A DNA stretch of 64,000 nt from an uncultured Eubacteriales bacterium (GTDB lineage: Bacteria > Acidobacteriota > Aminicenantia > Aminicenantales > UBA8522), in the NCBI GenBank assembly GCA_964353705.1, contig CAYGXD010000003.1, positions 891 through 64,890 on the forward strand, given 5' to 3'. The notes under the pieces are model-generated. The model did not search any database. It was given only the letters and a program-made list of their open reading frames with translations, and was not told the origin of the DNA. The position numbers and the translations under genes were made by a program. Below, one piece after another: positions 659 to 15,967 of the stretch (position 1 is the first letter of the stretch; the number at the start of each line of letters is the position of its first letter).

Positions 659-1699
659 TCAATCCTTCGCCGCAAAGGAAAAATGCTGCTGGACCATAAC
701 CCAGCGGCCGTCTCGTTTTTCGAGAACGCCGGTCCAGCGCGTATTCTCCCAGTTCGCGGGCTGTCCCTTCCATTCGTTGATATCGTCAAGGAGACAGAAG
801 AACCAAGCCACGTCGCCGGATTGCGAGACCTTGATTTTAAGATCCCTGATCTCATAGCGGAGGGCCTTGAAGTCGGGGCTCGCCCAGATCTTCTCCGCCT
901 TCCTGAATTCCTCGATTCCCCTGACGACGGCTCCGTCGGGGTGCACTTCGAGGAAGTCCGGGTCATCGGCGATGACTCCGTAGAGGAGGGGGAAATCCTT
1001 GGTTTTAGCCCAGCCGATGCAGTCCCGGATGGATTGTTCAATCCGTCCGAGCTCGGCGGGGCGCAGGACGAAGACATTGTCGGCCTTGAGCCGGTCTTCG
1101 ATGACGGCGTCCAAAGTGAAACCGGCCGTACGCGCCTCTTCACCTACCGACTCCCACGTCAGCACCCTCCCGTTATCTTCGGTAAGCGAAGGTTTCGGCT
1201 CCACAAGGGCCACGATTCCCCACGGTTTCAAACTGGACAACAGGCTCTTGAGGAGGGGCACCGGGTCATCCACATGATGGTAAACCCAGGTCATGACAAC
1301 CAGGTCCAGGCTGTTTTGAGGAAAGCGGGCATCGTCGGGGAGGCTGAGGATGACCTCGACGTTGGCCAGCCCCTGGCGCCGGCATCGCGCCTTCAGATAT
1401 TCGACGGCCGCAGCGTCGATGTCATTGGCATAAACCTTGCCTTTATCGCCGACCCGGGCCGCGATATAGACGGTGACCCGGCCGTGTCCGGCGCCCACCT
1501 CGCCGACGATGAAGCCCGGCCGGATGCCGAGAATGTCCATGACCAGTTCCGGCGGCTGGACGTCGTTGAACCTTTTCTCCTGGGGTTCGGCGAGCTGTCC
1601 AGCGCTTTTGGCAGCTTGGGCCGCCTCCTGGGCGGTCAAGAAAACATTAAAAGCCGTCAGCAGAATACTGATAACGATGATTGTGCTTCCGCGATGTTT
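659..1699 (-). CDS. secreted or membrane-anchored SAM-dependent methyltransferase fused to a C-terminal NTF2/SnoaL-like (DUF4440-like) domain
   Basis: RBS GGAGAAAGG lies 5 nt before ATG at 1699 (MKHRGSTIIVISILLTAF...). Hydrophobic N-terminus, GEVGAGHGRVT motif I, and a C-terminal ~120 aa resembling NTF2-like folds. The longer ORF to 1741 lacks an RBS. Confidence 0.6.
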   Translation of the reverse strand, partial: KHRGSTIIVISILLTAFNVFLTAQEAAQAAKSAGQLAEPQEKRFNDVQPPELVMDILGIRPGFIVGEVGAGHGRVTVYIAARVGDKGKVYANDIDAAAVEYLKARCRRQGLANVEVILSLPDDARFPQNSLDLVVMTWVYHHVDDPVPLLKSLLSSLKPWGIVALVEPKPSLTEDNGRVLTWESVGEEARTAGFTLDAVIEDRLKADNVFVLRPAELGRIEQSIRDCIGWAKTKDFPLLYGVIADDPDFLEVHPDGAVVRGIEEFRKAEKIWASPDFKALRYEIRDLKIKVSQSGDVAWFFCLLDDINEWKGQPANWENTRWTGVLEKRDGRWVMVQQHFSFAAKD

Positions 1700-1850
1700 C
1701 ATGCGTCCTTTCTCCGTATTGTCTGCCATCACGTCCTTCACCCGGATTTCAATCCAGACCTCGAGTTCCAGAGTATCCTCTTTTAGTGTGACGATATCTG
1801 GCTATTCGGGAATGTCGGCTCTTCCCCAAATGTCCTTTCCCGGCCTCGGC

Positions 1851-3647
1851 TTATTGTTTGGGCCGGACCTTGTCGATGACATCGGCACGGGCCCAGTAAG
1901 CGTGGCTCTCGCCGTCGCGCTGGCTCAGGAAAAAAAGATACTTGCCGTCGGCTGTGACCAGCGGGCAGAGCTCGACAGACGGGCTGTTGACCTCGGGCCC
2001 CAACTTGACCGGATCGGACCAGGCGCCGTCCGTCGCCCGGAAGCTCACCCAGAGGTCGTACTGACGCTCGAAGAGGAGATAGCTCCCGTTTGGTGCGATA
2101 AAGGGAGTGTTCTCTCCGTCCGCGGAGTTGATTGGCTTGCCCACGTTCACCGGCTTTTCGTACTTTCCTCCCGAGAAGCGAGCCAGGTAGATATCCTGCA
2201 GGCCGAGGCTGTCTGCGGCCTGCCCGGCGAAATAGACATTTCGCTCCCGGTCCAGGGAGAACTCCCAATGCTTGTCCACAGAGTTGACGTTGGGGTCGAG
2301 AGGCTGGGGCTCGGACCAGCCGGCGGCCGTCCGGTCGGCGAACCAGATCTTCTCGCTTTCTTGCCCCTTTTCGCCGGGAAGCGGCCGGCGGGAGATGAAA
2401 TAGATCCTTTTGCCGTCGGGCGAAAAGAAGGGCACATCATCGTCAACATCCGGGCCCGAAAAGGACGCCCAGGCAGGCGGCGTCCAGCGGCCGTCGACCC
2501 GCTTCATCACGAGCAGGCCTCCCCGGGAATAGAGCTCACCCGGAAAGGACACCATCGGCGCCCAATAGACCTCGTTCCCATCCGGTGAAAAGACGGCCGT
2601 GCTGTGAATGCCCCAAATCGAGGAGATGATCCCCAGGCCGAATAGTTCGGGCTTTTCGCCCGGCGGTTTTTGGCCCAGATAATCTCCTTTGAGGACGGGG
2701 AACCGGATGTCGGATTTATCGGCGCCTTTTTCGGCCAGGAGCGCGGCCACTAGCTCCATTTTCCTCTCCAGAGCGACGTTGTATGCGGTCTGTCCCATGA
2801 TCGTCCGCACGTCGAGTGGAGATCCGTTCTTGATGAGCATCCGGGCGGCGTCCGTCCGGCCGTCGCGGGCGGCGTAATGCAGAGGCGTCCAGCCGAACCG
2901 GTCGGGCGTGGCCGGATTAAATCCTTTCTCCAGGATAAGGCCGACGATCTCGGCTGATCCGCCCGCCGCCGCGGAATGGAGGAGCCATTCGCCCGAGGCA
3001 TCCACGACCTTCAGGTCTTGAGATTTATCGGTCAAACGCCGGAAAAGACCGGCCAAGCCGTTGGAGGCCGCCTGGGAAAGCATCCCCTGCCAATTGCGGC
3101 CGCTCTCAGGTACAACGGCCCCTTTCTCGAGAAGAAGGTCCACAAAGTCGGTTTTTCCGCGCCAGGCGGCGAGCTCGAGCGCCGTGGACCCGAATTTATC
3201 CGCGGCGTTGACGTCCGCGCCGGCCTCGATGAGGACGCGGCCCGTGGCCGCTTGGCCTCGCTCGCGGGCGCAGAGAATAAGGGCCGTCCGCGCGTAATCG
3301 TCACGCGTCTCGAGGGCAGCCCCGCGCTTGAGCAGTGCGGCAACGGCTTCGTTGCGGTCATACATCGCCGCCAGGTGGAGCGGGGTTTTTTGCCGGGCGT
3401 CCTGGGGTTCGAGTTTCGCCCCCTTGTCGATGAAATAGTCTATGAGTTCGACCTTTCCTCCATGTGCGGCGTAATGCAAAGGGGTATCGCCGTCGCCGTC
3501 GCGCATTTCGAGGAGCTGCGGTGACTTCTCGATCAAAGCTTTGACGGCCGGGATATCCCCTTTGCGGAGCAAATCGAAGATCTCCTGCGGTTGCGCCGCG
3601 ACCGCCAGCGTCAAAACAAAAGCGAGAAATGTGGCTAATTTCCTCAT
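1851..3647 (-). CDS. secreted ankyrin-repeat / PD40 (TolB-like) beta-propeller fusion protein
   Basis: Signal peptide MRKLATFLAFVLTLAVAAQPQ. At least six ankyrin repeats (TPLHYAA..., TPLHLAA...). C-terminal half carries repeated FSPDG/SPDGKRIYF PD40 motifs. RBS GGAGAAAC before the ATG. Confidence 0.75.
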   Translation of the reverse strand: MRKLATFLAFVLTLAVAAQPQEIFDLLRKGDIPAVKALIEKSPQLLEMRDGDGDTPLHYAAHGGKVELIDYFIDKGAKLEPQDARQKTPLHLAAMYDRNEAVAALLKRGAALETRDDYARTALILCARERGQAATGRVLIEAGADVNAADKFGSTALELAAWRGKTDFVDLLLEKGAVVPESGRNWQGMLSQAASNGLAGLFRRLTDKSQDLKVVDASGEWLLHSAAAGGSAEIVGLILEKGFNPATPDRFGWTPLHYAARDGRTDAARMLIKNGSPLDVRTIMGQTAYNVALERKMELVAALLAEKGADKSDIRFPVLKGDYLGQKPPGEKPELFGLGIISSIWGIHSTAVFSPDGNEVYWAPMVSFPGELYSRGGLLVMKRVDGRWTPPAWASFSGPDVDDDVPFFSPDGKRIYFISRRPLPGEKGQESEKIWFADRTAAGWSEPQPLDPNVNSVDKHWEFSLDRERNVYFAGQAADSLGLQDIYLARFSGGKYEKPVNVGKPINSADGENTPFIAPNGSYLLFERQYDLWVSFRATDGAWSDPVKLGPEVNSPSVELCPLVTADGKYLFFLSQRDGESHAYWARADVIDKVRPKQ

Positions 3648-3738
3648 GGATGTTTCTCCTTTCTACATTTAATACGAAGGATTACCGGCACACCGGTCCG
3701 TTTGGGCAGGTTCCAGCATCATTTGATCCCTCCGTCGC

Positions 3739-4560
3739 TTAACATGAAAAAGTCGCGTCCCCTTCATCGGCTGCCGTATTGATAACCGGCCCCGTATTCC
3801 TGGCTTCCATCCAGTCGCCCGATGCATCCTTGAAACTGATGTAGAGATCGTAATTTCCGAAACCGCCCGGGTTATTGGAGTGAAATATCAAGCCCGTCTT
3901 ATCGGGAGAAACGCGGGGCGAGCTGATCCTGCCCCGATTGATCTTCTCGCTCAGCTTCACCGGCTCCTGCCATCTCCCGCCGCTCCACGCTGAACAATAG
4001 ACCTCCGCGGGCGGCCGACAGAAGTAGAAGCACGGTTCCGCGCTCAGGTACGGCTGCACCTCAACGCCGTCCGTGTTGATGGGGGCTCCCATATTTCTGG
4101 GCTCGCCCCATTTCCCTTCGGCCTTTTCGACAAACCAGATATCGGGCGTCCGTTCCGGCTCCCCGTCTTTATTCCGGGGTCTGTTCGAGACAAAAAATAG
4201 GGTGTTCCCGTCGGGAGATAGCGAGGGCTCGTTGGTGATAAAATCTCTTGAAAACGGCAGGATCTCCGGAGCTTTCCATTGCTCCCCATCCCGGACGATC
4301 CTCACGATCGTATTGAGATTGTCCGGCGGCTTCCTTTCCCAATAAATGATCTCGCTCCTATCCGGGGAGATATTCAATTTGGCCTGGGCCCCTTCTTTCG
4401 ATACAAGACCTGGCGCGAATATCTCGGGGATCATCCCCGGCGGCCTCTGGCCGAGGTAGGGGCCGGTGAGTTTAGGAAAATCGCCTGGCTGTGAAGACAA
4501 GCGCATGGCCACATAAAAGAGCAGCCCTAAAACGAACGCGGGCCTTTTCATCATGAGCAC
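3739..4560 (-). CDS. secreted PD40 beta-propeller repeat protein (TolB-like)
   Basis: Signal peptide. Motifs LSPDGNTLFF and VSPDKTGLIFHSN. Shares the motif PYLGQRPPGMIPEIF with DYLGQKPPGEKPELF of the 1851..3647 protein, suggesting paralogy. Confidence 0.7.
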   Translation of the reverse strand: MLMMKRPAFVLGLLFYVAMRLSSQPGDFPKLTGPYLGQRPPGMIPEIFAPGLVSKEGAQAKLNISPDRSEIIYWERKPPDNLNTIVRIVRDGEQWKAPEILPFSRDFITNEPSLSPDGNTLFFVSNRPRNKDGEPERTPDIWFVEKAEGKWGEPRNMGAPINTDGVEVQPYLSAEPCFYFCRPPAEVYCSAWSGGRWQEPVKLSEKINRGRISSPRVSPDKTGLIFHSNNPGGFGNYDLYISFKDASGDWMEARNTGPVINTAADEGDATFSC

Positions 4561-4570
4561 CTCGGCGAAA

Positions 4571-4885
4571 CTAATCTTTCGGTCTCAGGTCCTCGATGAA
4601 GCCGGCATCCACCCAGTGGATCTGGCCGCCGACTACGAAGAAAAGATATTTCCCATCCGCTGTCACAAAGGGATTGAGGCCGCCGGGGCTCTGGATGATC
4701 TCGCTGAGATCCCGGCCCGGAGTCCACGTCCCGTCCTTTTTCCTGTAGCTGATACAGAGCTTAGCCGGTTTTTGACTCCTGGTAAAAAGAAGATAGCTTC
4801 CGTCGGGGGAAATAAAGGGGGAATCGTCGCCCTGCTCCGTTTCTCTATAACTATCCTGAAAGACCGAATCCTGCCCGGCCTGCAT
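4571..4885 (-). pseudogene. C-terminal remnant of a PD40 paralog (no signal peptide, no RBS)
   Basis: The 104 aa ORF ends VTADGKYLFFVVGGQIHWVDAGFIEDLRPKD, near-identical in pattern to the C-terminus of the 1851..3647 protein (VTADGKYLFFLSQRDGESHAYWARADVIDKVRPKQ). No N-terminal propeller or signal sequence lies upstream. Confidence 0.45.
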
Positions 4886-4987
4886 CTGTACCTGAATGGC
4901 CAGGAGGGGAAAACTCTATTCGATGATTTTGATAGAAAGCCGGCAGAAGCTATCTACTCTTGAATAAAACAGGCCCCGGCCGCAGCG

Positions 4988-5434
4988 TCACGAGTGCTGG
5001 TGATAGATCTTGCCAACGATTTTCCAGCCGTCGGGGAAACGGTAGAGCGACAGGTAGTCGGTGAAGACGTGTTTGCCTTCCCGGCTGAGCTCGAGCTTGA
5101 CGGCGGCGGCGTTCCCCGTGACGTCGACCTGGACGAATTTGCAGGAGACGAGCGGAGGCTTCTGGCCCTGGGCCTTCCTCTTTTCCGCGGAAGCGATCCA
5201 ATCGGCGATAGGAAAGCGGGTTAGCTTTCCGTCCTGCAGGCCGAGCAGCACGAAGTCCGGATGGAATCCGGCCCGGGTCTTCTCCAGGTCCCCGAGGTTC
5301 ATCAGGCCGTCCACATAGGCGGTCTGGATGAAGGCCTTAATGGCCTCTTCGTCCTGGCCTCCCTGGGCCCGGAGGAAAACGGGTGCGGAAAGCAGGGCGA
5401 CGAGGACCGCGACGATCATGATTCTTTTTATCAT
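4988..5434 (-). CDS. secreted NTF2-like / DUF4440-family small protein
   Basis: RBS GGAAAGGAGAT before ATG at 5434 (MIKRIMIVAVLVALLSAPVFLRAQ signal peptide). The ~125 aa mature part has an NTF2-like pattern (YVDGLMNLGDLEK...FVQVDVTGNAAAV...YRFPDGWKIV). Confidence 0.55.
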   Translation of the reverse strand: MIKRIMIVAVLVALLSAPVFLRAQGGQDEEAIKAFIQTAYVDGLMNLGDLEKTRAGFHPDFVLLGLQDGKLTRFPIADWIASAEKRKAQGQKPPLVSCKFVQVDVTGNAAAVKLELSREGKHVFTDYLSLYRFPDGWKIVGKIYHQHS

Positions 5435-5523
5435 CGGATCTCCTTTCCCGGACAGCTTTTTCATGGCTGTTCTCGCTGCCGGTCAATTATTTTTAATGCA
5501 TCCGACAGAGACATGGGCGCCTT

Positions 5524-7281
5524 TCATCGCGGCAAAATGGTTGCCGGCTCCGCAAATTCTCCGCCATCCAAGCCTGCAGGCTGACTGTGTTCTCTATTAA
5601 TTCGCTCGATCATTTGTGCTGCGTTCTCATTATCAGGATTCAACTCCAGCGATTTCTTGTAGTACTGGAGTGAAAGATCCGTTTTTTTCATGTTGTAGCA
5701 GCATTCGCCCAGGCTGTCCCAGACATTGAAGGAGCTTGGAAAAAGCATGGTATTAAGAAGAAAGACCCGATACGCTCTTTCCAGATCGCCGTTCTGCATT
5801 AAAACATAGCCTTTGTCATTATTGCCGTCCTCAAGGATTCCGGGATCCAGCACTGTCCACCACTCATATTCCTTATATTTCTGCTTCAGCTGTTGATAAT
5901 GAACAACCGCCGCTTCCGCTCCTTCATCGGCCGCGAATTCTGCAACCGATCTCCAATCTCCACTCAAGATCAAATCCACAGCCGGATCAACTCCGTTGAA
6001 GTAATCATGGCTCGAAAACGCCGCCGGAAAATGGGGGATAAAATATTCAGGGTTGCTGAAAGGCCATCTGTTTGTATAGTGCTGACTGGCAATCCAAAGA
6101 GGAAAGCCGCTGTTGGGCAGATTGCCGGCAGGTCGGCTGTTGGAAAACAAGTCGGCGCCGCAGGCATCCGGCTCTCCCACAAATAAAGCCTTCGTATGAA
6201 CCGCGAGCTCATACATGAATATGGAAGCGGCACTGTACGTTTTCTTGCTCGAGATGACATAAAGACCGCCTTCTTTATTGATAAACTCCCTTCTGATGAT
6301 CTGATTAAGAAAGGGAAGTATCAAGGTGCCGTTGCCTCCATTGTTGTAGCGAAGGTCAATAATGAACTTGCTGATGTTCTGGGCATTTTGGTCGATATAA
6401 TCCCACATCCGGGCGGAGAACCGGGCAAAGCTTTCCTCATGATTGGGCTGGTTCATGACTTGATTGAATTGGAAATATATCGTTTTTTCTTTGACGAGGT
6501 GGTCAAACCAGTAGAATTGGATCCCCTGTCCTTGATTCCTAAAATGCAGCGACCCCCTTTCCCCAAGCCTCGCAAGGGGGCTGACATATTCCCCTTTTGT
6601 CGGGCCGACATTAAGAGGGAAGCTCCATCCGTACTCCACAGGGCTGTCCTCAAAGAGGGAAGAGAGGGTGAGTTTCGCCGGTTCTTCAGTACCCAGGACC
6701 AACTCCAGGTCCATATGGTCGGGGTTATCAATGACTTTCAAACCAGACAATACGCGGGCAAAGGAAATTCCATTCAAAGCCCAGTATCTTCTTCCAAACT
6801 TGTTGTCACCGCTGACGGCTTTTTCTATCGCGGCCAAGACATTTTCTATGGGCCGGCCATTTATGGCCCTTAAACGAGCCCCCAGAAACTTCTGCTGTTC
6901 TTTCTTGATTGTCGTGATGTAAACTCCATCTGTGAATTCAGACACCCGGAAGGGGAACCTCAAGTCAAGGAGATGGAAAAGGCCGTCATCCGACAAACCC
7001 GTATGCCCGTCTTCAATAATCGCCACTATTTTTCTTAGGGCCCAGTAGCATTCCAAATCCGCTCTTGATTGAGCGATTTCACGACGGGATTCGGCCACGA
7101 TCGAATCGAATCTTGTTTTGTCTGTTTTATAGAAAAGATGAGGATGCTTTGATTCTAATTTCGTGACGACGAATTCAAGATCTTCCAACCATTGTGCCGT
7201 TGTCAGCCGTTTTTCTTGGGAGGCAACAGGCTGGAAAGCAGCGGCCAAGATCAGGACTAAATAGAGAATCGGCCCTTTCAT
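5524..7281 (-). CDS. S41-family peptidase (C-terminal processing/tricorn-core type) with C-terminal TPR repeats, secreted
   Basis: RBS GAGAAAGGAG before ATG at 7281 (MKGPILYLVLILAAAF signal). IIDLRYNNGGNGTLILPF and SAASIFMYELA...VGEPD match the S41 LIxDLRxNxGG...SASExF...VGE pattern. C-terminus is TPR-like (YYKKSLELNPDNENAAQ). Confidence 0.7.
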   Translation of the reverse strand: MKGPILYLVLILAAAFQPVASQEKRLTTAQWLEDLEFVVTKLESKHPHLFYKTDKTRFDSIVAESRREIAQSRADLECYWALRKIVAIIEDGHTGLSDDGLFHLLDLRFPFRVSEFTDGVYITTIKKEQQKFLGARLRAINGRPIENVLAAIEKAVSGDNKFGRRYWALNGISFARVLSGLKVIDNPDHMDLELVLGTEEPAKLTLSSLFEDSPVEYGWSFPLNVGPTKGEYVSPLARLGERGSLHFRNQGQGIQFYWFDHLVKEKTIYFQFNQVMNQPNHEESFARFSARMWDYIDQNAQNISKFIIDLRYNNGGNGTLILPFLNQIIRREFINKEGGLYVISSKKTYSAASIFMYELAVHTKALFVGEPDACGADLFSNSRPAGNLPNSGFPLWIASQHYTNRWPFSNPEYFIPHFPAAFSSHDYFNGVDPAVDLILSGDWRSVAEFAADEGAEAAVVHYQQLKQKYKEYEWWTVLDPGILEDGNNDKGYVLMQNGDLERAYRVFLLNTMLFPSSFNVWDSLGECCYNMKKTDLSLQYYKKSLELNPDNENAAQMIERINREHSQPAGLDGGEFAEPATILPR

Positions 7282-7393
7282 AACGGCTCCTTTCTCTAGA
7301 GATAGGCACACCCATATGATCCTTTTGCCCCCAGATACGCGGGCTGGTAGTGATCCGATATTCCGTAAAACGGCCCGCAGGTTATGATTTGGG

Positions 7394-9802
7394 CTATGGC
7401 CATGGGGGATATTTTCCTAATCGAGTGAACAGCCTGAACCGGTCGCCCTTGTTCTCGGGACAAATGACCCGCGATGGCAGCTTCTTTGCGGCCGCTTCCC
7501 GAGCGAAGGCGCCGTACATGTATTCCCGGTTATAGGCATGGATCGGGAAGACGACACGAGGCTTGAGCGATTCGGCCTGCGGGAACTTCCCGATGAAGGC
7601 GAGGTCGATCGTTCCCGCCTTTTCGAGGAAATAATCCATATCGGCGCGGAAAGTATCGATCGGGCCCATATAGTCGCCCGAATGATAGATCGCTAGACCA
7701 TCCACTTTGACCAGATAGGCGACCTCGGGAACGTCGTTGTGCTCGCAATTCACGGTGAAGATCTCCATCGCCCCGAGTGTCTTCGTGGCCCTGGGCGCCG
7801 GCATGTCGATCGTGCGTTCCCCTTTCCTCGCATTCCAGCCGAAGGCGTAAGTGATATCTTTGATTATCGGACGCCAGGAGAGGATCACCGGATCGAAGTG
7901 ATCGCCATGGGCATGGGAGATAAAGACGGTGACATCTTGGTCTTTGATTTCATCCGGATTGACGAAGCCATTGGCCAGGGATGGCTTCTCCGGCCGCGGC
8001 CCGCCTCGGCTGAAGTAATCGAAAATGAGGAGACGGGTCCGGGTTTTGACCGCGAAACCGCAATGTCCCAGGGACCAGACGATCGCCTCTCCCTCCTTGA
8101 GGGGCTTGGCCAGTTGTGCGGCGACATCCTGAGGCGGTGGCCCCGGCGTCGGCTCCGCTCCGGCATCCTTAAGCTTTCCCGCGATGGCCGGGTACGAATA
8201 TTCCCCGGCCAGGTCAAGCGGAGTCCTCCCTTGCCCGTCTTTTATCTTTGGATCCGCCCCTTTTTGGAGAAGAAAGCTGACCATATCGGTCCGTCCTTTT
8301 TTTACGGCCAAGTGCAAGGGAGTTGACCCCTCAGGGTCCAGGGCATCGACCATGGCGCCCTTGTCAAGGAGCATCTGGGCGATTTCAAAGCTGCCCCCTT
8401 GAGCGGCCCGCTGGAAAGGCGTCCGGCCGGATTCGTCCTTCAGGTTGACGGGAACCCCTTTCCCCAACACAAACGATGCCGGCTGAGTCATTCCGAGATA
8501 GGCCACCCGATGAAGCGGATATTTGTCGAGTAGATCCCTGTTCTTGAGGGCTTCAGCCCGGGGCCAAAGCTTTTCGACTAGCCCGACAAAACCGTTCCCC
8601 AAAGGAAAGGTCAGAGGCGTTTCATTGAGTTTGTTCCGGACGTCGAGCTTCGCGCCGTGCTCGAGCAGCCATTCGATGACGTCTTCGCGGCCGGCCTGGC
8701 TGACATAGAGGAGGGGAGTCGATCCTTCTTCGTTCAGGGCGTTGACGTCCGCGCCGCGCTTGATCAGGACGTCGAGGAGGTGCAGATTGCCTGAGAACGC
8801 CGCGTCATGAAGGGGGGTGGACTGATAATAATCACGGCTCATGACGTTCGCTCCACGGGAGAGAAGGAAATCCGCGGCCTTATCCGACCCGGCTTCCGCG
8901 GCCTTGAGAAGCGGCGTACGGCCGTAGCGGTCAGGACCGTCAATAGGAAAACCGGCCTTTACGAGGCGGTCCATCAAGTCGATCATGTCGCCGGCCGCGG
9001 CGCAATGTAGGAGGCTCCGGCCGTCGCGACAGACGGCCTTCACGTCGGCGCCCTCAGCGATCAGCATGTCCACCATGTCTTGGCGTCCTCCCGAAGCGGC
9101 AAAGTGGAGGGGAGTTTGGCCGAGGTCATCGGCGGCGTTGACGTTCGTACCGCCGGCGAGCAGTTTTTCGACCAGGGCCTTCAACCCTCCCGCCGCCGCC
9201 GAATGAATCAGGGTTCCGCCGCCGTCATTTTTTGATGCCAAGTCAGCCCCGTGGGCCAGGAGGTAATCAACCAGCGAGAGGAATCCGGCCGAGGCCGCCC
9301 GGTGGAGGAGGGCTCTCCCCGCCTCTCCTGTGGTCTCGACCTTAAGGCCGCCTTCAAGAAGCGTCCCGACCGCCTCCGGATGCCGACCGTAGAAGGCTGA
9401 TTCGAGCGTGGATACGCCGCGTGTGCTCAGGGCATTGGGGTCGGCGCCGGCTTTGATCAGGGCCCGGGCCGCTTCGACCTGCCCGGCCCAGGCCGCCCAG
9501 TGGAGCGGCGTGAATCCGTCGGGATCGGTCGCCTTGATATCGGCGCCGTTGGCGATGAGGAAGGCGACGATTTCCATATTCCCCAAGTCGCAGGCGAAAT
9601 GGAGAGGGGTCCGTCCCCGGTCGTCTTTTTCGTCGACGGCCTTGGGATCTGCGACGACGAGCACCTTGACCTTGGCCAGGTCGCCCGCCCGGACAGCGTC
9701 ATGGATCTCTTGAGCACCGATAGTGATCGCAAGAACGGATATGAAAACTGGGAGGATAGCACTCCTTTTCATGGAAACGAGAATCCTCTTCAAATAGCTC
9801 AT
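7394..9802 (-). CDS. secreted ankyrin-repeat protein fused to a C-terminal metallo-beta-lactamase-fold domain
   Basis: Hydrophobic N-terminus. More than 12 ankyrin repeats (TPLHFAC, TPLHWAA, TLIHSAA...). C-terminal ~230 aa carry HCGFAVKT...ISHAHGDHFDP (MBL HxHxDH motif). RBS GGAGAAAGGGG lies upstream of ATG 9802. Confidence 0.7.
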   Translation of the reverse strand: MSYLKRILVSMKRSAILPVFISVLAITIGAQEIHDAVRAGDLAKVKVLVVADPKAVDEKDDRGRTPLHFACDLGNMEIVAFLIANGADIKATDPDGFTPLHWAAWAGQVEAARALIKAGADPNALSTRGVSTLESAFYGRHPEAVGTLLEGGLKVETTGEAGRALLHRAASAGFLSLVDYLLAHGADLASKNDGGGTLIHSAAAGGLKALVEKLLAGGTNVNAADDLGQTPLHFAASGGRQDMVDMLIAEGADVKAVCRDGRSLLHCAAAGDMIDLMDRLVKAGFPIDGPDRYGRTPLLKAAEAGSDKAADFLLSRGANVMSRDYYQSTPLHDAAFSGNLHLLDVLIKRGADVNALNEEGSTPLLYVSQAGREDVIEWLLEHGAKLDVRNKLNETPLTFPLGNGFVGLVEKLWPRAEALKNRDLLDKYPLHRVAYLGMTQPASFVLGKGVPVNLKDESGRTPFQRAAQGGSFEIAQMLLDKGAMVDALDPEGSTPLHLAVKKGRTDMVSFLLQKGADPKIKDGQGRTPLDLAGEYSYPAIAGKLKDAGAEPTPGPPPQDVAAQLAKPLKEGEAIVWSLGHCGFAVKTRTRLLIFDYFSRGGPRPEKPSLANGFVNPDEIKDQDVTVFISHAHGDHFDPVILSWRPIIKDITYAFGWNARKGERTIDMPAPRATKTLGAMEIFTVNCEHNDVPEVAYLVKVDGLAIYHSGDYMGPIDTFRADMDYFLEKAGTIDLAFIGKFPQAESLKPRVVFPIHAYNREYMYGAFAREAAAKKLPSRVICPENKGDRFRLFTRLGKYPPWP

Positions 9803-9882
9803 TTCTTTAGCCCCTTTCTCCTGACAAGACTAACCGCCTCCGCTTCAGCGAGTCCGCGGGAGCCTAGTCCCTTAGCGACCGC

Positions 9883-11523
9883 TCAATAATTCCAGGCTGA
9901 AGCATCTTCACCGGCCGGTGCGTTTTTCACGATGTGCTCTTTGAACAGCTGGTAGAGTTCGGCGTCGCGGGGGCCCCAGCAATGCGGCTTTCGGTCCCCG
10001 TACTTGACGACACCGGCATAGTAGGGATCTTTCGTGCTTTCCAGGAATTTTTCGAGCAGGACGACGGCATTGTTCAGATAGAACGTGTCCATATCGCCGA
10101 CATAAACATGAAGCTTGCCGGCGAGCTTCGGCCCCAGCCAGGACCAGTTGCTTTCGAGGTAGTGCCGGATGTCATATTTCTTCCACTGCTCCGCGACTTC
10201 ATGGTCGATTTTCCCGGTTTTCCAATCCCAGAGGGGCTTCGGGTACCCATCCTCGCCGATCGGAGTGTAGGCGGCTTCCCAGATGGCCCACTGGTTCCCG
10301 CTTCTGTGTTTGTCCCCGAGAGTCCATTCGTAATAGTAGGAGTCGCGCACCGTGTGCCACACCTGGCCGTCCGGGTCGCGGGCCTCGGGACGTTCGGTCG
10401 GGATGTGGTTGTGGATCCTGTAGTAGGCGTTTTCGTCCTGGTAGATGTTGATGAGCTCATAGTACCGGAAATCCACCGGGTCGGGGCAGAGCGACCAGGT
10501 GCCGCCGAAGAAATCCGGATGGAAAACCTGCATGGCCAGGCAGATCCAGCCTCCGGTCGAGCCGCCGGTAAGCACCCTCGCGTAGGGCTTCCGGATGATC
10601 CGGAAATGCTCCTCGACGTAGGGGATGAGCTCCTGCATGATGGCGTCGTCGTAAGGCCCGACGTTGGGCGAGTTGACGACATAGGAGTCATCGTAATAAG
10701 GGCAGGGGTGCTGGAAGGTAACGGTGATCATCCTCGGGAAATTTTCCGACGTCCAGAGCTTATAAAAGGGATTCCCTTCGGCGAAGCCATGCGGGGCCCT
10801 CAAAGAAAAATGGCCCTGGTTATAGCACACCGGGTAATAAACGTCAGGGTGGGTATCGTATCCTTCCGGAAGAAGAACCGTTGCTCCCAAGTAGATGGGC
10901 TGTCCCCAGAACTTGGTTAAGATTTCACTCTGGAACTTGACGCGCTTGACGTAGGCGGTGTCCGGCGGGATGACAACAGGCGGGATGACCTTATCGCAGA
11001 CCAACTGGATCGTCTTCCCCTCGCCGGGATCGATGAAGACCTTGCTGACGGCGCTGTACAAGTTGCCCGGCGAGATATTCCACCTCTGGCCTTCCCATTG
11101 ATCGTTATGCATCCACAGAGTATGTCCGTCCGACCGCTTGAACTCGGTATAGATGTTGACGAATCCCTGGAGATAGTATTCCCCCGGCGTGATTTTATTA
11201 ATGCTATCCAAGGGAAAGCCGAACACCGTTTCATCGACGACGGCTCCCTTCCCCGGTTTGAGGGCCTGGACGTTTTTTCCCCATATCGGGATCCCGGCCG
11301 GCGTATCATAACCGGTTTGGAGCCGTGGCTCCCGGCCGGCGTGCTTCGAGACGATCACATAGACGCGGCCGGTTATCGGTTCGGGATGGACGGCGGGAGA
11401 AAAAGAAATTTCAAACTGGAAAGACCCCGGCTTATCCTGGGCCGGAAGGTTGAGGCAAAGGACAAGAGAGGCCAAAACAGCCGCCAAGAGAAAGCCAAGC
11501 GGGTTGCGTTTCCTGGGTTTCAT
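9883..11523 (-). CDS. secreted alpha/beta-hydrolase (putative esterase family)
   Basis: RBS AGGATGGAG before ATG 11523 (MKPRKRNPLGFLLAAVLASLVLCL signal). LTGGSTGGWICLAMQVFHPDFFGG resembles the GxSxG nucleophile elbow of PF00756-type esterases. Confidence 0.5.
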   Translation of the reverse strand: MKPRKRNPLGFLLAAVLASLVLCLNLPAQDKPGSFQFEISFSPAVHPEPITGRVYVIVSKHAGREPRLQTGYDTPAGIPIWGKNVQALKPGKGAVVDETVFGFPLDSINKITPGEYYLQGFVNIYTEFKRSDGHTLWMHNDQWEGQRWNISPGNLYSAVSKVFIDPGEGKTIQLVCDKVIPPVVIPPDTAYVKRVKFQSEILTKFWGQPIYLGATVLLPEGYDTHPDVYYPVCYNQGHFSLRAPHGFAEGNPFYKLWTSENFPRMITVTFQHPCPYYDDSYVVNSPNVGPYDDAIMQELIPYVEEHFRIIRKPYARVLTGGSTGGWICLAMQVFHPDFFGGTWSLCPDPVDFRYYELINIYQDENAYYRIHNHIPTERPEARDPDGQVWHTVRDSYYYEWTLGDKHRSGNQWAIWEAAYTPIGEDGYPKPLWDWKTGKIDHEVAEQWKKYDIRHYLESNWSWLGPKLAGKLHVYVGDMDTFYLNNAVVLLEKFLESTKDPYYAGVVKYGDRKPHCWGPRDAELYQLFKEHIVKNAPAGEDASAWNY

Positions 11524-12909: not shown

Positions 12910-14331
12910 TCAGGTGCCAGTTGCCGGGGTATCCTGTTTTTCAGTTTGCTTGAATTGCGCGAGGGCGTCCGCGGCGGCTTTGCCGAAGCCCTCGGAAACC
13001 GTCGGATGGTTGTAGACCATGTCCTTGATGTCCTCCGCCCGGGCGCCCAGTTTGACGGCCAGAGCGGCGAAGTGGATGATCTCCGCCGCGTCCTGCCCGG
13101 CGACATGGGCGCCGATCAGGCGGTGCGTCCCGCGGTCGAAGATGAGCTTGAAGAACCCGGTGACGTTCGCGTCCAGGCAGGAACGGACGAGGTCGTTATA
13201 ACCGCAGCGGCCGATGACGATCTCGGCTCCGCCGGTTCGGGCCCATTCCTCGGTGAGTCCGGCCGAGCCGACCTCGGGGTCGGTATAGATCCCCCAGGGC
13301 GCGCAGCTATAATCCATCTTGACCGGCTGCCCCATGGCATTCTCGGCCGCGATCCGGGCTTCGGCGACAGCCATGGACGAGAGCATGATCCGGGCCAGGA
13401 CATCACCCGCCGCGTAGATTCCGGCCACGGCCGTCTGCATGTGTTCATTGACCTGGAGCTCTCCCCGGGGCCCGGGCATAATGCCGGCCGCCGCCAGGCT
13501 GAGAGCGTCGGTATTCGGCCGGCGCCCGACGCCGATCATGATCCGGTCGGCTTCGACCGTCTCGCCGTTGGAGAGAGTCCCCCGAACGCGGCCGTCGGGA
13601 GCCGGCTCGACCCTTTCGAGGCCGGTCTCGGCCGTGAACCGGATTCCCCTTTTTTTGAATTCCCGAGTGATCAGGGCGGCCACATCATGATCCTGGCCAA
13701 GAAGCGCCCGCTGTGCCTTCTCGACGACGATCACCTCGGAGCCAAGGGAACGAAAGATCAAAGCCATCTCGCAACCGACGACTCCCGCTCCGATGATGAG
13801 CAAACGGCCGGGAACGGCATCCATAACCGTCAGGTCGTCCGGAGAAAGGATGACATTTCCGTCAAAGGGGATCCCGGGCAAGGCGATGGGCCGTGATCCG
13901 GTGGCGATGATCGTCCGGGGAGATACGATCTCGCGGACGGATCCGTCGGGCAGCCCGACATGGAGCGTCCGGGCATCCTTGAATGAGGCCGTTCCCGTCA
14001 ATGTTTCAATGGCGTGCTTGCGTACGAGTGTCGCCAGCACACCAAACTCACAAAGCATCGTCTTATGCCGGCTGTCAAGGATCGTCTTGTAGTCCGCCCG
14101 GGCGCCTTCGACAACGGGGACTCCATAGCGTTTGCCCTTCTTCAAGTTCTCCAGGAAATGGGCCGCATTGCTCAAGATCTTGCTGGGCAGGGTTCCCGTC
14201 CGGACGCAGCCTCCGCCGAGCTCGGCCTCACGGTTGATCATCAAGACCTTGGCGCCCAGCTGGGAAGCTCGCAGGGATGCGGAGATGCCCGCCTCGCCGC
14301 CGCCGATGACAATCAGGTCGTACGCGTTCAT
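12910..14331 (-). CDS. FAD/NAD(P)-binding pyridine nucleotide-disulfide oxidoreductase, single-Cys SthA-like (soluble transhydrogenase/dihydrolipoyl dehydrogenase family)
   Basis: RBS GGGGAGG lies 3 nt before ATG 14331 (MNAYDLIVIGGGEAG...). GGGCVRTGTLPSKIL has one Cys, as in SthA GGGCTHWGTIPSK. C-terminal dimerisation region AAEIIHFAALAV. Confidence 0.65.
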   Translation of the reverse strand: MNAYDLIVIGGGEAGISASLRASQLGAKVLMINREAELGGGCVRTGTLPSKILSNAAHFLENLKKGKRYGVPVVEGARADYKTILDSRHKTMLCEFGVLATLVRKHAIETLTGTASFKDARTLHVGLPDGSVREIVSPRTIIATGSRPIALPGIPFDGNVILSPDDLTVMDAVPGRLLIIGAGVVGCEMALIFRSLGSEVIVVEKAQRALLGQDHDVAALITREFKKRGIRFTAETGLERVEPAPDGRVRGTLSNGETVEADRIMIGVGRRPNTDALSLAAAGIMPGPRGELQVNEHMQTAVAGIYAAGDVLARIMLSSMAVAEARIAAENAMGQPVKMDYSCAPWGIYTDPEVGSAGLTEEWARTGGAEIVIGRCGYNDLVRSCLDANVTGFFKLIFDRGTHRLIGAHVAGQDAAEIIHFAALAVKLGARAEDIKDMVYNHPTVSEGFGKAAADALAQFKQTEKQDTPATGT

Positions 14332-14380
14332 GTCCTCCCCTTTCTCAGACCGCTCTCCGGGAAGGGCGAGCGGGCCGGCC

Positions 14381-15967
14381 TCAGAAGTTCTGGGTGAAAC
14401 TCCCCCAGAGATCTTCCTCAAGCTTCCAGTAGGCGGCGACAGCGTCCTCGGCCATCTTGACGCAGTAGGAGGTCAAGAACTCCCGCGCTTTGGCCGGGTT
14501 CTGCTTGTAAAGGCTCAAGGCTTCCTCTTCGACCTTTGCTTGGTCGGCAAAGGCCTTCTCTTCTATCGGCGACCAGACCTGGGCGATCGACTGGCTCATC
14601 GGCTGCCAATAGAGCAGGGCCAGCTGGCTAACCTTCCGGAATGCCCACCAGGCACACTCCCGACTGTATCCGCCCCGGCCGTCCACCATGTAGGAATCCG
14701 GCATCCGCGTGATGCCGCAGTAGAAGGGCGTGTGGGGTGTCGTCACGGGGTTGTCGTACCCCAGCCAGACGACGCCGCCTATCGGATCGGGAAGCCAGCT
14801 CCGCGACTGGGTGATCTGAAGGTAGGTCGCCCTCTTACAGGCGATCGTCCGTTCGGTCTGGACCTTGAGGAGCTCCATCATCTCCCGGTTCATAAACGGG
14901 TGGGCCACCGGGCTGGTTGAGGCTTTCCCGTCGCGGTTGACCTGGTAGAGAGTCCGGGTCATGTCGTAGGGGGTGCCTTGATAGGTGTCGCGGAAAATGT
15001 CCAGGACATCCTTGACCGTGAGCTTTTTCTCCGGCTTGACCGACAAGGGGAAGTTTTCGCCATTGGGGTCGAGCTTGAGCGAAGGAGCGAGAAGGCTGAG
15101 GGCCCGCCATTCGCGGCGGCGACAGCCCATGCTCTCCCGGGAGGCATAGGCATAGCAGAATTCGAAAGGCTTGCCGCTCGCCGGATCCCACCAACCCATT
15201 TCCTGGGCGAGGGAATGGATGTTGGCCGAAGCCATGAAGTTCTCCGGGTCGTTCAGGTTGAGCTGCCGGATCCGGCTGGCGTTGGCCGATACGCCGACCT
15301 CGTCGTCGGGGATCCGCACCGCCGCCCAGACCGCCCCCTTTTTCCCCGCACCGGGGCCAAGGATCTCGAAATGCCAGGTCTCCTTGGGGTCGGCGAAGGT
15401 GAAGCACTCTCCGTAGTCGTTATAGCCGTAAGTCTTGGTCAGGTCGTCGGCGATCCTGATTGCTTCCCGGGCGGTCTTTGCCCGCTCCAGGATGAGGCGG
15501 TAAAGCTCGGGGCAATCGATGATCCCCTCCTTGCTCCGGAGTTCCATCTTTCCGCCGAAGGTTGTTTCTCCGATCGCCAACTGGCATTCATTCATGACGG
15601 GATAGGCGGTGTTTATGTAAGCGAAAGTCTCGGGGGACTGCGGGATCTGGCCGCTCGGGAGGCGGTTCTTGTCGTCCGGCCGCCTCGTCTCTTTCGAGTG
15701 GTGATAAACGATACACATCTCTCCGGGTTTGTGCTTCAGGCGGGGAACGACGGTGATCCAGGTCCTGTCGGACATACTGTCGCAGGAGTGCGAGGTCATG
15801 GTCGAGCCGTCCGCCGAGGCCAGCTTCCCCACCAGGATGCTGGTGCAGGATTCAAAGGGCTCGTCGCCCGGGGCGAAAACGGCGTTATCGGGCCGATGAC
15901 CGGCCGCGCCCACGGCAAGCCATACCAGGATCAAGGCCGCAAAGATTCCAAAAGACCGTTTTTTCAC
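14381..15967 (-). CDS. C69-family dipeptidase (secreted, N-terminal Cys nucleophile)
   Basis: GTG start at 15967 preceded by AAAGGAG. Signal peptide is followed by FESCTSILVGK, the Cys-nucleophile context typical of peptidase C69. Confidence 0.65.
   Translation of the reverse strand: MKKRSFGIFAALILVWLAVGAAGHRPDNAVFAPGDEPFESCTSILVGKLASADGSTMTSHSCDSMSDRTWITVVPRLKHKPGEMCIVYHHSKETRRPDDKNRLPSGQIPQSPETFAYINTAYPVMNECQLAIGETTFGGKMELRSKEGIIDCPELYRLILERAKTAREAIRIADDLTKTYGYNDYGECFTFADPKETWHFEILGPGAGKKGAVWAAVRIPDDEVGVSANASRIRQLNLNDPENFMASANIHSLAQEMGWWDPASGKPFEFCYAYASRESMGCRRREWRALSLLAPSLKLDPNGENFPLSVKPEKKLTVKDVLDIFRDTYQGTPYDMTRTLYQVNRDGKASTSPVAHPFMNREMMELLKVQTERTIACKRATYLQITQSRSWLPDPIGGVVWLGYDNPVTTPHTPFYCGITRMPDSYMVDGRGGYSRECAWWAFRKVSQLALLYWQPMSQSIAQVWSPIEEKAFADQAKVEEEALSLYKQNPAKAREFLTSYCVKMAEDAVAAYWKLEEDLWGSFTQNF

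Follow-up and report, generated by a model that had tools for sequence, protein, structure and literature searches.

A run of minus-strand genes in the window (the whole 64-kb stretch of DNA that was analysed) is, judged by comparison with homologous loci, a genuine gene cluster, conserved among Aminicenantes-like bacteria of sediments, and its ankyrin-MBL (Ank-MBL) and ankyrin-PD40 (Ank-PD40) fusion proteins are members of large, unstudied protein families. We favour, at somewhat better than even confidence, the reading that this conserved Aminicenantes-like cluster is probably co-transcribed and that its products are Sec-exported and cooperate outside the cytoplasm. The block consists of the following genes, with export assigned by a leader heuristic:

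9883 to 11523, minus strand: exported alpha/beta-hydrolase esterase (Pfam PF00756)
7394 to 9802, minus strand: exported Ank-MBL fusion with ~16 ankyrin repeats, 802 aa (Pfam, repeat map, fold)
5524 to 7311, minus strand: exported S41-like domain with C-terminal TPR tail (Pfam)
4988 to 5464, minus strand: exported NTF2-like protein, Lumazine_bd_2/SnoaL_2 (Pfam, E = 2.3e-21)
4571 to 4885, minus strand: leaderless PD40 remnant, 104 aa, probable pseudogene (translation, homologue alignment)
3739 to 4560, minus strand: exported stand-alone TolB-like PD40 propeller, 273 aa, 3'-truncated (Pfam)
1851 to 3647, minus strand: exported Ank-PD40 fusion with ~9 ankyrin repeats, 598 aa (Pfam, AF2 propeller)
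659 to 1741, minus strand: leader-bearing class-I SAM-methyltransferase (MT) fold with SnoaL_3 (Pfam)

The open reading frames that the first-pass annotation had described as consecutive and on the minus strand were recovered where it had placed them, and its domain calls (Ank-PD40, PD40, NTF2-like, S41-like plus TPR, Ank-MBL and esterase) proved correct by Pfam, with the MBL score lying below cutoff. The MT-SnoaL3 gene at 659-1741 is an eighth member beyond the range first described and is part of the conserved cluster. We scored leaders heuristically by a positive n-region, a hydrophobic core of 9-10 residues and a cleavage-like site between A and Q. Signal peptides had been claimed for all seven genes; by this heuristic, six of the seven carry leader-like N-termini, as does the eighth gene, and the fragment at 4571-4885 is leaderless. 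About 11 of the 43 called ORFs of the window outside the block also had a leader-bearing appearance (a background of ~26%); leaders on seven of eight consecutive genes exceed chance (by a binomial estimate, p ≈ 5e-4 for at least 7 of 8). A tblastn search with the block's own proteins placed both ankyrin genes of the window and its three PD40 genes or fragments inside the block, with no further Ank or PD40 copy in the remaining ~52 kb. Promoter and terminator scans came out at chance level. A gene for a secreted C69 dipeptidase lies nearby (14381-15967).

The Ank-MBL protein comprises a leader (9713-9802), an ankyrin array (8153-9712), a Pro-rich linker and an MBL domain (7433-8128). The ankyrin calls are supported by HMMs in both fusion proteins, which carry tandem repeats of ~33 residues matching Ank profiles (Ank_2 E = 4.7e-96 with ~16 repeats in a 33-residue register in Ank-MBL; Ank_2 E = 6.6e-52 with ~9 repeats of 33-residue period in Ank-PD40). 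The MBL domain scored 23.1 bits against Lactamase_B_3, just below the 24-bit Pfam cutoff, which Ank-MBL homologues pass at 42.6 bits (L007, ~35% identical) and 55.4 bits (L012, 75% identical). Seven predicted metal ligands (H630, H632, D634, H635, H707, D733 and H755) make up an HxHxDH...H...D...H site, and all seven columns are invariant in a 17-sequence alignment with identity down to 45%. Foldseek, with an AF2 model of the domain at pLDDT 88.7, matched UlaG (2wyl, E = 2.7e-15) and Igni18 (6hrg, 1e-11), as well as 3bv6 and NAPE-PLD. Because the metal site is intact, orthologues score above the cutoff and the fold agrees, the call is secure, and on sequence and model the domain is assigned to the MBL-fold metallo-hydrolase superfamily, PF13483 group. 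It has the fold and full ligand set in common with the UlaG/Igni18/T. maritima-type hydrolases of PF13483, but identity to the UlaG group is at most 20%, and the present protein is exported (heuristic leader) with an N-terminal ankyrin array of ~520 residues, whereas UlaG acts in the cytoplasm, as a lactonase in ascorbate catabolism. An identity as a class B beta-lactamase was rejected on structural grounds: the top 50 PDB fold matches were UlaG, Igni18, NAPE-PLD, tRNase Z-like PNGM-1, CmlA/FrsH and similar proteins, with no clinical B1-B3 enzyme among them.

The Ank-MBL protein shares 44% identity with P0151, a collinear homologue of equal length (802 aa), at 45% over the ankyrin array and 47% over the MBL domain with one gap; for the closer homologue L054 the two values are 90% and 89%. 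Array length across Ank-MBL proteins varies by whole 66-residue repeat pairs. In these comparisons the array and the enzyme change at about the same slow pace, and nothing points to diversification of the array.

Downstream, the Ank-PD40 protein is built of a leader (3591-3647), an ankyrin array (2712-3590) and a propeller (1854-2702; PD40 E = 1e-17). Its propeller was modelled by AF2 at pLDDT 93.4, with TolB propellers as the best PDB matches (E ~ 2e-8), and more than 15 loci have an orthologue of the protein, 70-83% identical, downstream of Ank-MBL. The propellers of this protein and of the stand-alone PD40 protein resemble TolB in having a high-confidence propeller model with TolB and TolB/Pal complexes as best PDB matches. 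They differ from it in their distance (TM ~0.53, identity ~15%), in lacking the N-terminal TolA-binding domain, in place of which stand ankyrin repeats or nothing, and in occurring as several paralogues per locus. We rejected an identity as TolB itself, since only the propeller is present and the NCBIfam TolB model (TIGR02800) was not matched at E ≤ 0.001; a related PD40 protein in L007 reached 24.6 bits, where the cutoff is 343.

The other two PD40 genes are damaged. The stand-alone gene (orthologues 89% identical in L082 and 81% in L002) aligns with residues 1 to ~267 of homologues of ~307 aa and lacks the last ~35-40 residues. The 104-aa ORF matches residues ~201-297 of PD40 homologues of ~300 aa at 66-77% identity (77% to P0363 and P0349) and has an in-frame stop just upstream. 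As it is leaderless and matches only the last ~90 residues of PD40 proteins, we read it as a 5'-truncated remnant and probable pseudogene. With two PD40 genes decayed, not every part of the block is under selection here.

At the upstream end, the esterase (likely start ATG 11523, ORF open to TTG 11580) has the leader MKPRKRNPLGFLLAAVLASLVLCLNLPA, with heuristic cleavage before QD. It belongs to PF00756 by an HMM score of 40.7 bits (cutoff 22; region ~10366-10884) and by a nucleophile elbow motif, GGSTGG, which aligns with the equivalent motif of esterase 8z91, its PDB sequence match at E = 1.8e-8; ferulic-acid esterase 7xrt matched weakly (E = 0.0066). Orthologues of 81-88% identity lie directly upstream of Ank-MBL in L053, L054, L056-58, L068, L072, L075 and L094, and in L091 the orthologue is ~3.7 kb upstream. 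The NTF2-like gene (likely start ATG 5434) has orthologues (73% in L012, 71% in L110) that likewise sit between Ank-MBL and Ank-PD40. The MT-SnoaL3 protein, with leader MKHRGSTIIVISILLTAFNVFLTA and heuristic cleavage before QE, joins a SAM-methyltransferase fold (1052-1579) to SnoaL_3 (668-1042). It shares a conserved motif I (ExGAGxG) and post-I acidic residue with the L007 and L011 MTs and P0147, and its orthologues 72-77% identical follow Ank-PD40 in L075, L078 and L082.

The S41-like/TPR gene (likely start ATG 7281) combines a Peptidase_S41 match (6127-6411) with a TPR tail (5602-5826; TPR_1/2/8). Its catalytic-domain HMM match places it in S41 (PF03572, 34.9-36.1 bits against a cutoff of 24, covering only positions 17-133 of the 165-position profile), and no PDZ domain was matched in Pfam. 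The only non-TPR PDB sequence match, not significant, was the IRBP module, a non-catalytic S41 non-peptidase homologue. Compared by eye with the E. coli Tsp motif, the nucleophile Ser is apparently retained (TYSAAS), and GEPDACGA set against GEPTFGKG would put Gly at the position of the general-base Lys. Without a PDZ domain, and by eye apparently without the canonical catalytic Lys, the label of protease is therefore uncertain. Orthologues of 70-87% identity lie directly downstream of Ank-MBL, and in L075, L094, L078, L053 and L067 they overlap or abut it.

Conservation of these genes as neighbours in a relative was a test set by the first-pass annotation, and the synteny comparison bore it out, with block orthologues co-directional in many metagenome contigs at 70-90% identity, in the same order and with some genes overlapping. 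The order esterase, Ank-MBL, S41-TPR, (MT), Ank-PD40, MT-SnoaL3 recurs in L056, L075, L078, L094, L053, L064 and L076, and L110 and L012 carry the NTF2/PD40 variant found in the window. Among loci with at least 2.5 kb downstream, 25 of 34 had PD40, MT, SnoaL3, S41-TPR or NTF2 within 6 kb, and 320 of 322 neighbour domain hits were co-directional; most of the 80 metagenome loci, however, come from close relatives and several from the same studies, so that they are not independent. More distant phyla retain only Ank-MBL, sometimes with PD40 or MT; the MBL gene adjoins an exported MT in L003 (Acidobacteriota), L008 (Gemmatimonadota), L011 and L007. The esterase and S41-TPR genes are lineage-specific and absent from the clusters of other phyla. 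Content also differs between close strains (tandem paralogues, fragments, deletion chimeras), the L011 locus has different content beside the same lpdA-like gene, and the block families have many paralogues in the lineage.

The first-pass annotation implied that exported ankyrin fusions are rare, an impression contradicted by their spread: a signal peptide-Ank(n)-MBL architecture occurs in 107 of the best 150 clusters, at 50% identity, of the MBL family of this protein, across several uncultured phyla, and Ank-PD40 is found again in MAGs of Aminicenantes, Eisenbacteria and Bacteroidales. To the Ank-MBL, Ank-PD40 and MT-SnoaL3 fusions of the window, homologues add MBL-PD40 (P0053), signal peptide-MBL-MT (P0147), DJ-1/PfpI-MBL (P0175) and SnoaL3-PD40 (P0336, P0337 and P0367); L012 seems to hold an MBL-MT fusion as well, but only if a frameshift is read through. 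These pairwise fusions connect the modules into one fusion graph. The architecture had been called uncharacterised, and our search of a literature library agreed, returning nothing on an Ank-MBL/Ank-PD40 cluster, no paper combining ankyrin and Aminicenantes and, among the matches listed for exported ankyrin with MBL, only unrelated ones.

The domains, the MBL metal site, the heuristic leaders, the gene order and the pairwise fusions are supported directly, whereas any physical association, compartment, substrate and chemistry of the block products are inferred. The block has two types of protein-binding scaffold, ankyrin solenoids and TolB-like PD40 propellers, each set between signal peptide and mature domain or encoded beside catalytic modules. 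The latter comprise a di-metal MBL-fold hydrolase (UlaG/Igni18-like, PF13483), a PF00756 serine esterase, the S41-like/TPR protein, SAM-methyltransferase-fold proteins and NTF2-fold proteins. In the periplasm or envelope, the scaffolds may hold the enzymes to one another or to a shared substrate, protein-linked or macromolecular in nature, on which the hydrolases, and possibly the methyltransferase, would then act sequentially. The boldest form of this reading, that ankyrin solenoids and TolB-like propellers join the MBL hydrolase in a single complex with exported proteins of SAM-methyltransferase fold and NTF2 fold, forming an unrecognised and widespread extracytoplasmic multi-enzyme system of Acidobacteriota/FCB-type uncultured bacteria, is a tentative proposal to which we give a fairly low probability. 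We know of no supply of the SAM cofactor for a methyltransferase in the periplasm.

Nutrient scavenging, in line with the suggestion of the first-pass annotation that the module might degrade an envelope or exogenous polymer or ester, is in our judgement unlikely. In this reading an exogenous polymer containing ester or peptide bonds would be held by the Ank, PD40 and TPR modules and broken down by three exported enzymes, namely the esterase, the MBL hydrolase and the S41 peptidase. Heuristic export leaders on three hydrolase-type domains agree with it, as do the esterase 8z91 and weak ferulic-acid esterase matches and the proximity of the C69 dipeptidase gene. However, neither a transporter nor a TonB-dependent receptor, a SusCD pair or a glycoside hydrolase belongs to the conserved core, and ankyrin and TolB-like propeller modules bind protein, not polysaccharide. 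Moreover, the exported MT and NTF2 modules fit simple depolymerisation poorly, and it is doubtful that the S41-like domain is catalytically competent.

We give a low probability to a role in envelope maintenance or quality control, by analogy with Prc-NlpI, CtpA-LbcA or Tol-Pal, whose targets would be wall enzymes or envelope proteins of the cell itself. One polypeptide does pair an S41-type domain with TPR in an exported protein (heuristic leader), the best structural matches of the propeller are TolB and TolB/Pal complexes, and there is sub-threshold NCBIfam similarity to the PorE and CHU_0125 OmpA-like envelope proteins. Yet in Prc-NlpI and CtpA-LbcA the TPR adaptor is separate, whereas here it is fused, with no PDZ domain detected and a Lys that does not align by eye. 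TolB N-terminal and peptidoglycan-binding domains are likewise lacking, every NCBIfam score is far under cutoff, and strain-variable content with decayed copies would be unusual for core envelope functions.

Exported bacterial ankyrin proteins include P. aeruginosa AnkB and Bdellovibrio Bd3460. Another, Tli, is an exported T6SS immunity protein with six ankyrin repeats that binds the Tle lipase (PMC11470151). Like the fusion proteins of the block (heuristic leader), these three have a signal peptide followed directly by an ankyrin solenoid, which in the three acts in the periplasm by binding a protein partner; they are, however, small, ankyrin-only and each encoded with the gene of one particular enzyme or toxin, whereas the arrays described here (up to ~16 repeats) are fused to an enzyme or propeller in a multi-enzyme cluster without a toxin gene. 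A Tli-type T6SS immunity identity was rejected, since neither the block nor related loci contain a lipase or T6SS gene and the arrays are fused. Screening with PADLOC also rejected known anti-phage defence, as only the ankyrin-containing models PDC-M72A, Ankyrin and MzaA and the methyltransferase model mad2 matched, consistent with shared Ank repeats and the MT fold. The precedent of Tli, the strain-to-strain changes of content with tandem paralogues, fragments and deletion chimeras, and the different content in L011 beside the same lpdA-like gene would suit a conflict island, encoding periplasmic immunity or neutralising proteins (Tli-like ankyrin, NTF2-type immunity folds, decoy TolB-like propellers) or secreted effectors against competitors or grazers. 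We consider this very improbable: none of the adjacent genes is of toxin, Rhs, T6SS or lipase-effector type, PADLOC matches are limited to ankyrin-containing and methyltransferase models, the MBL and MT catalytic sites are conserved, and the ankyrin array evolves at the slow rate of the enzyme and shows no sign of diversifying.

A chance or historical juxtaposition of secreted families abundant in Aminicenantes is already disfavoured and scarcely credible, for although these families are rich in paralogues and the clusters of other phyla have neither esterase nor S41-TPR, order and strand are repeated in dozens of contigs with overlapping genes, several pairwise fusions span phyla, and the remaining ~52 kb of the window yielded no other Ank or PD40 copy by tblastn.

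Bacterial ankyrin repeats are usually treated as host-targeting effectors or as periplasmic partners of rare occurrence. In the present case a family of exported metallo-hydrolases that counts hundreds of divergent members has long ankyrin arrays as its standard N-terminal module, and gene order and fusions tie these arrays to TolB-like propellers and exported methyltransferase-fold proteins. Even if there is no complex, a recurrent cluster is now correctly annotated, with two decayed genes flagged and the impression of rarity corrected. If the parts do form a complex, they would constitute enzyme machinery of a new type, located in the envelope or outside the cell, in phyla that abound in sediments (Aminicenantes, Zixibacteria, WOR-3 and Marinimicrobia), with long ankyrin arrays used by bacteria as periplasmic enzyme scaffolds. 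Such a complex would imply methyl transfer or new SAM-fold chemistry outside the cytoplasm, and one would have to ask how a SAM-type enzyme functions there.

The block comprises eight successive minus-strand ORFs that together span 11.58 to 0.66 kb and are separated by gaps of 10-110 nt. The domain calls of the first-pass annotation were confirmed by Pfam, which also assigned domains to g0, a gene beyond the range of that annotation.

Genes of the block with Pfam assignments (Ank, ankyrin; MBL, metallo-beta-lactamase; PD40, TolB-like propeller)
g7, 9883-11523(11580), minus strand: PF00756 esterase
g6, 7394-9802, minus strand: Ank array and MBL-fold domain
g5, 5524-7311, minus strand: S41-like domain and TPR
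g4, 4988-5464, minus strand: NTF2-like Lumazine_bd_2
g3, 4571-4885, minus strand: PD40 fragment
g2, 3739-4560, minus strand: PD40
g1, 1851-3647, minus strand: Ank array and PD40
g0, 659-1741, minus strand: class-I SAM-methyltransferase fold (MT) and SnoaL_3

A tblastn search of the 64-kb window with the block's own proteins found two Ank genes and three PD40 genes or fragments, all inside the block. Pfam scans at permissive settings, run on both terminal regions of g7 and on the N-terminal region of g5, returned nothing further, and PDB sequence searches with g5 matched only TPR designs plus a non-significant IRBP entry; its S41-like domain is without PDZ, and the catalytic Lys is without counterpart in a by-eye alignment. 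The numbers of promoters and terminators predicted essentially matched those for shuffled sequence (5 vs 4.9 expected, and 16 vs 15.1 expected), and these scans are uninformative on operon structure. Antisense ORFs of 300-370 aa, typical at the G+C content of the window, lie over real genes at 683-1786, 1473-2588 and 9934-10920 on the plus strand, one of them opposing g0. At 14381-15967 on the minus strand, 3 kb upstream of the block, is a gene for a leader-bearing 528-aa protein, taken to be a putative C69-type dipeptidase.

All seven genes g1-g7 had been said to begin with signal peptides; in a heuristic scan of N-termini this held for six, the exception being the leaderless fragment g3, and a leader was also predicted on g0. 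Each has a basic n-region, a hydrophobic core of 9-10 residues and a junction of the ...A-Q kind. Because similar leaders were called by the same heuristic on only about 11 of the 43 window ORFs outside the block, seven leaders among eight consecutive genes are unlikely by chance (about 5e-4, an estimate). All predicted block leaders end directly before Gln (TA-QE, GA-QE, PA-QD, AS-QE, RA-QG, AA-QP and SS-QP, the hyphen marking the junction), as do several in related loci (L007, L011 and L012). The Bacteroidetes 'Q-rule' refers to the pyroglutamate N-termini of SPase I substrates; the block's junctions resemble it, but in an Aminicenantes-like genome.

In g6 about 16 ankyrin repeats, spanning residues ~31-550, come directly after the leader, and a Pro-rich linker connects them to an MBL domain of 230 residues. 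The Pfam Lactamase_B_3 score was marginal (23.1 vs a cutoff of 24), and an exact-sequence look-up matched no record. The nearest PDB entry to the MBL domain by sequence, 3bv6, reached just E=0.12, so the fold was established by modeling. The AF2 model was confident (pLDDT 88.7), with its best PDB matches to UlaG, V. cholerae 3bv6, a T. maritima MBL, Igni18 and NAPE-PLD, each at no more than 20% identity. The seven canonical ligands (H630, H632, D634, H635, H707, D733 and H755) do not vary across an alignment whose members go down to 45% identity. We regard g6 as a predicted MBL-fold hydrolase of the lactonase/phosphodiesterase-like group; a class B beta-lactamase was rejected, as the best fold matches are UlaG, Igni18 and NAPE-PLD-type proteins.

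Exported Ank fusions had been described as rare, a description that our searches contradict. A profile search with the MBL domain among 1.84 billion cluster representatives recovered 2232, 414 of them at E≤1e-30. In 107 of the best 150 of these 2232, the MBL domain is preceded by an ankyrin array in which from two to twelve or more repeats are detectable, and most of the 107 have a hydrophobic N-terminus. The other members of the 150 are mostly leader-bearing stand-alone enzymes of ~290 aa. Ank-MBL proteins occur, as labelled, in Aminicenantes, WOR-3, Zixibacteria, Neomarinimicrobiota and a Chrysiogenales-labelled MAG, and on a neighbour-joining tree the Ank fusion, which forms large clades, must have been gained or lost about 10 times. 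Ank-PD40 proteins, too, turn up repeatedly; examples come from Aminicenantes contigs of 1-2 Mb and from MAGs of Eisenbacteria and Bacteroidales. Neither fusion is rare, and the architecture is far less unusual than had been assumed. A literature search turned up no work on ankyrin in Aminicenantes, and the matches listed for exported ankyrin-MBL proteins, or for SAM methyltransferases in the periplasm, were unrelated.

The two parts of g6 evolve in step. The homologue P0151 (802 aa) is collinear with g6 with one gap, at 45% identity in the Ank region and 47% in the MBL region, and closer orthologues gave paired values of 90/89, 78/81 and 72/71%. The regions thus diverge at similar rates, from which it follows that the array is as constrained as the enzyme. 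To judge from these alignments, such constraint favours a partner or substrate that is itself conserved, and a rapidly diversifying, arms-race ankyrin binder was rejected on the same grounds. Length differences among Ank-MBL orthologues (loci L064 and L084 against window 8153-9712) are exact 66-residue gaps, each amounting to two complete ankyrin repeats lost or gained. Far shorter arrays of 3-4 repeats sit on closely related MBL domains in L001 and P0021. In g1, about 9 ankyrin repeats precede a propeller modeled at pLDDT 93.4 whose best structural match is TolB. The motif that opens this propeller, FPxLxGxYLGQxPPG, is also where the mature form of g2 and other stand-alone homologues begins, and in both g1 and g6 the array seems to have been inserted behind the leader of a domain that was already exported.

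We mapped related loci by per-domain HMMs. The nearest genome, the Aminicenantes MAG L012 (75% identity), has SnoaL3, PD40, Ank-MBL(-MBL), NTF2, Ank-X, Ank-PD40 and MBL then MT, all co-directional. Two ORF structures in this long-read MAG, a single 897-aa Ank-MBL-MBL ORF (3925-6618) and a frameshift-split Ank-PD40 orthologue (8784-9884, 9344-10588), reflect real fusion or decay, or sequencing error. A metagenome scan added 80 loci, whose MBL domains mostly show 66-94% identity; these loci are not phylogenetically independent. The order esterase, Ank-MBL, S41-TPR, (MT), Ank-PD40, MT-SnoaL3 was found in L056, L075, L078, L094, L053, L064 and L076, and L110 resembles the window (Ank-MBL, PD40, NTF2, PD40, Ank-PD40). 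Ank-MBL and S41-TPR genes overlap or abut in L075, L094, L078, L053 and L067. A partner family lies within 6 kb in 25 of the 34 loci having at least 2.5 kb downstream (PD40 in 21, Ank-PD40 in 12), the esterase is upstream of Ank-MBL in 10 of 27, and co-directionality holds for 320 of 322 domain hits. The block genes are thus conserved as neighbours in relatives. Twelve genome loci had indicated that esterase and S41-TPR are non-conserved neighbours, which the metagenome scan overturned for close relatives; in other phyla only Ank-MBL is retained, sometimes with PD40 or MT. An lpdA-like pyridine-nucleotide-disulfide oxidoreductase at window 12910-14421 is 73% identical to L011 7864-9324, which in that Aminicenantes MAG adjoins a minimal cluster (leader-PD40 fragment, MBL, MT) very unlike the window's; a common flank with differing content suggests a variable island at a conserved locus.

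By Rosetta-stone logic, pairwise fusion and adjacency of the modules are the strongest argument that they act together. Single polypeptides combine MBL with PD40 (P0053), a leader-MBL with MT (P0147), MT with SnoaL3 (g0), SnoaL3 with PD40 (P0336, P0337 and P0367), DJ-1/PfpI with MBL (P0175) and MBL with MBL (P0126 and L012), and in L012 an MBL gene and the following MT are separated by a frameshift alone. Owing to these fusions, single-linkage clustering of ORFs across loci gave one component. Stand-alone MBL genes adjoin predicted exported MT genes in Acidobacteriota, Gemmatimonadota and Aminicenantes loci, and in L007, which encodes a ~35% identical Ank-MBL homologue, all three MTs bear leaders (4535-5233, 7168-7809 and 9272-9925). 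SAM-binding motif I (ExGAGxG) is kept in g0, in the L007 and L011 MTs and in P0147, as is the post-I acidic residue. We know of no SAM supply outside the cytoplasm, which leaves an exported SAM enzyme without an obvious cofactor source.

Part of the block has decayed. The 104-aa ORF g3 has an in-frame stop immediately upstream and aligns only to residues ~201-297 of ~300-aa PD40 proteins (66-77% identity), and g2 is missing its 3'-terminal ~35-40 codons relative to ~307-aa homologues, with 91 nt between its truncated end and the next gene. This C-terminal-only match and 3' shortfall identify two decayed PD40 copies in tandem at 3739-4885; they derive from different paralogues, g3 being 77% identical to P0363. 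Four metagenome ORFs (P0109, P0110, P0111 and P0319) appear to be internal-deletion chimeras of cluster genes, for example a leader-Ank joined to the last 60 MBL residues and then SnoaL3, or Ank joined to mid-PD40 at a common 'YFI' microhomology. Such ORFs point to clusters in which recombination or decay is frequent, unless they arose in assembly.

Taken together, we lean slightly toward a functionally linked extracytoplasmic enzyme-plus-scaffold module, with much lower confidence in any specific chemistry. Its rivals are scavenging of nutrients, a quality control of the envelope like that by Prc-NlpI or Tol-Pal, a conflict or immunity island, and mere juxtaposition. PADLOC matched only ankyrin-containing and methyltransferase models, attributed to common repeats and fold, and a defence identity was rejected. 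NCBIfam models for Legionella Ank effectors, MzaA, PorE and CHU_0125 all scored far below cutoff, again reflecting common repeats. Against mere juxtaposition stand the conserved order and the fusions. The finding is real, and the block proves more coherent than one window alone could reveal. It belongs to a large family cluster that is uncharacterised, and its moderate interest lies chiefly in what it offers to biochemistry.
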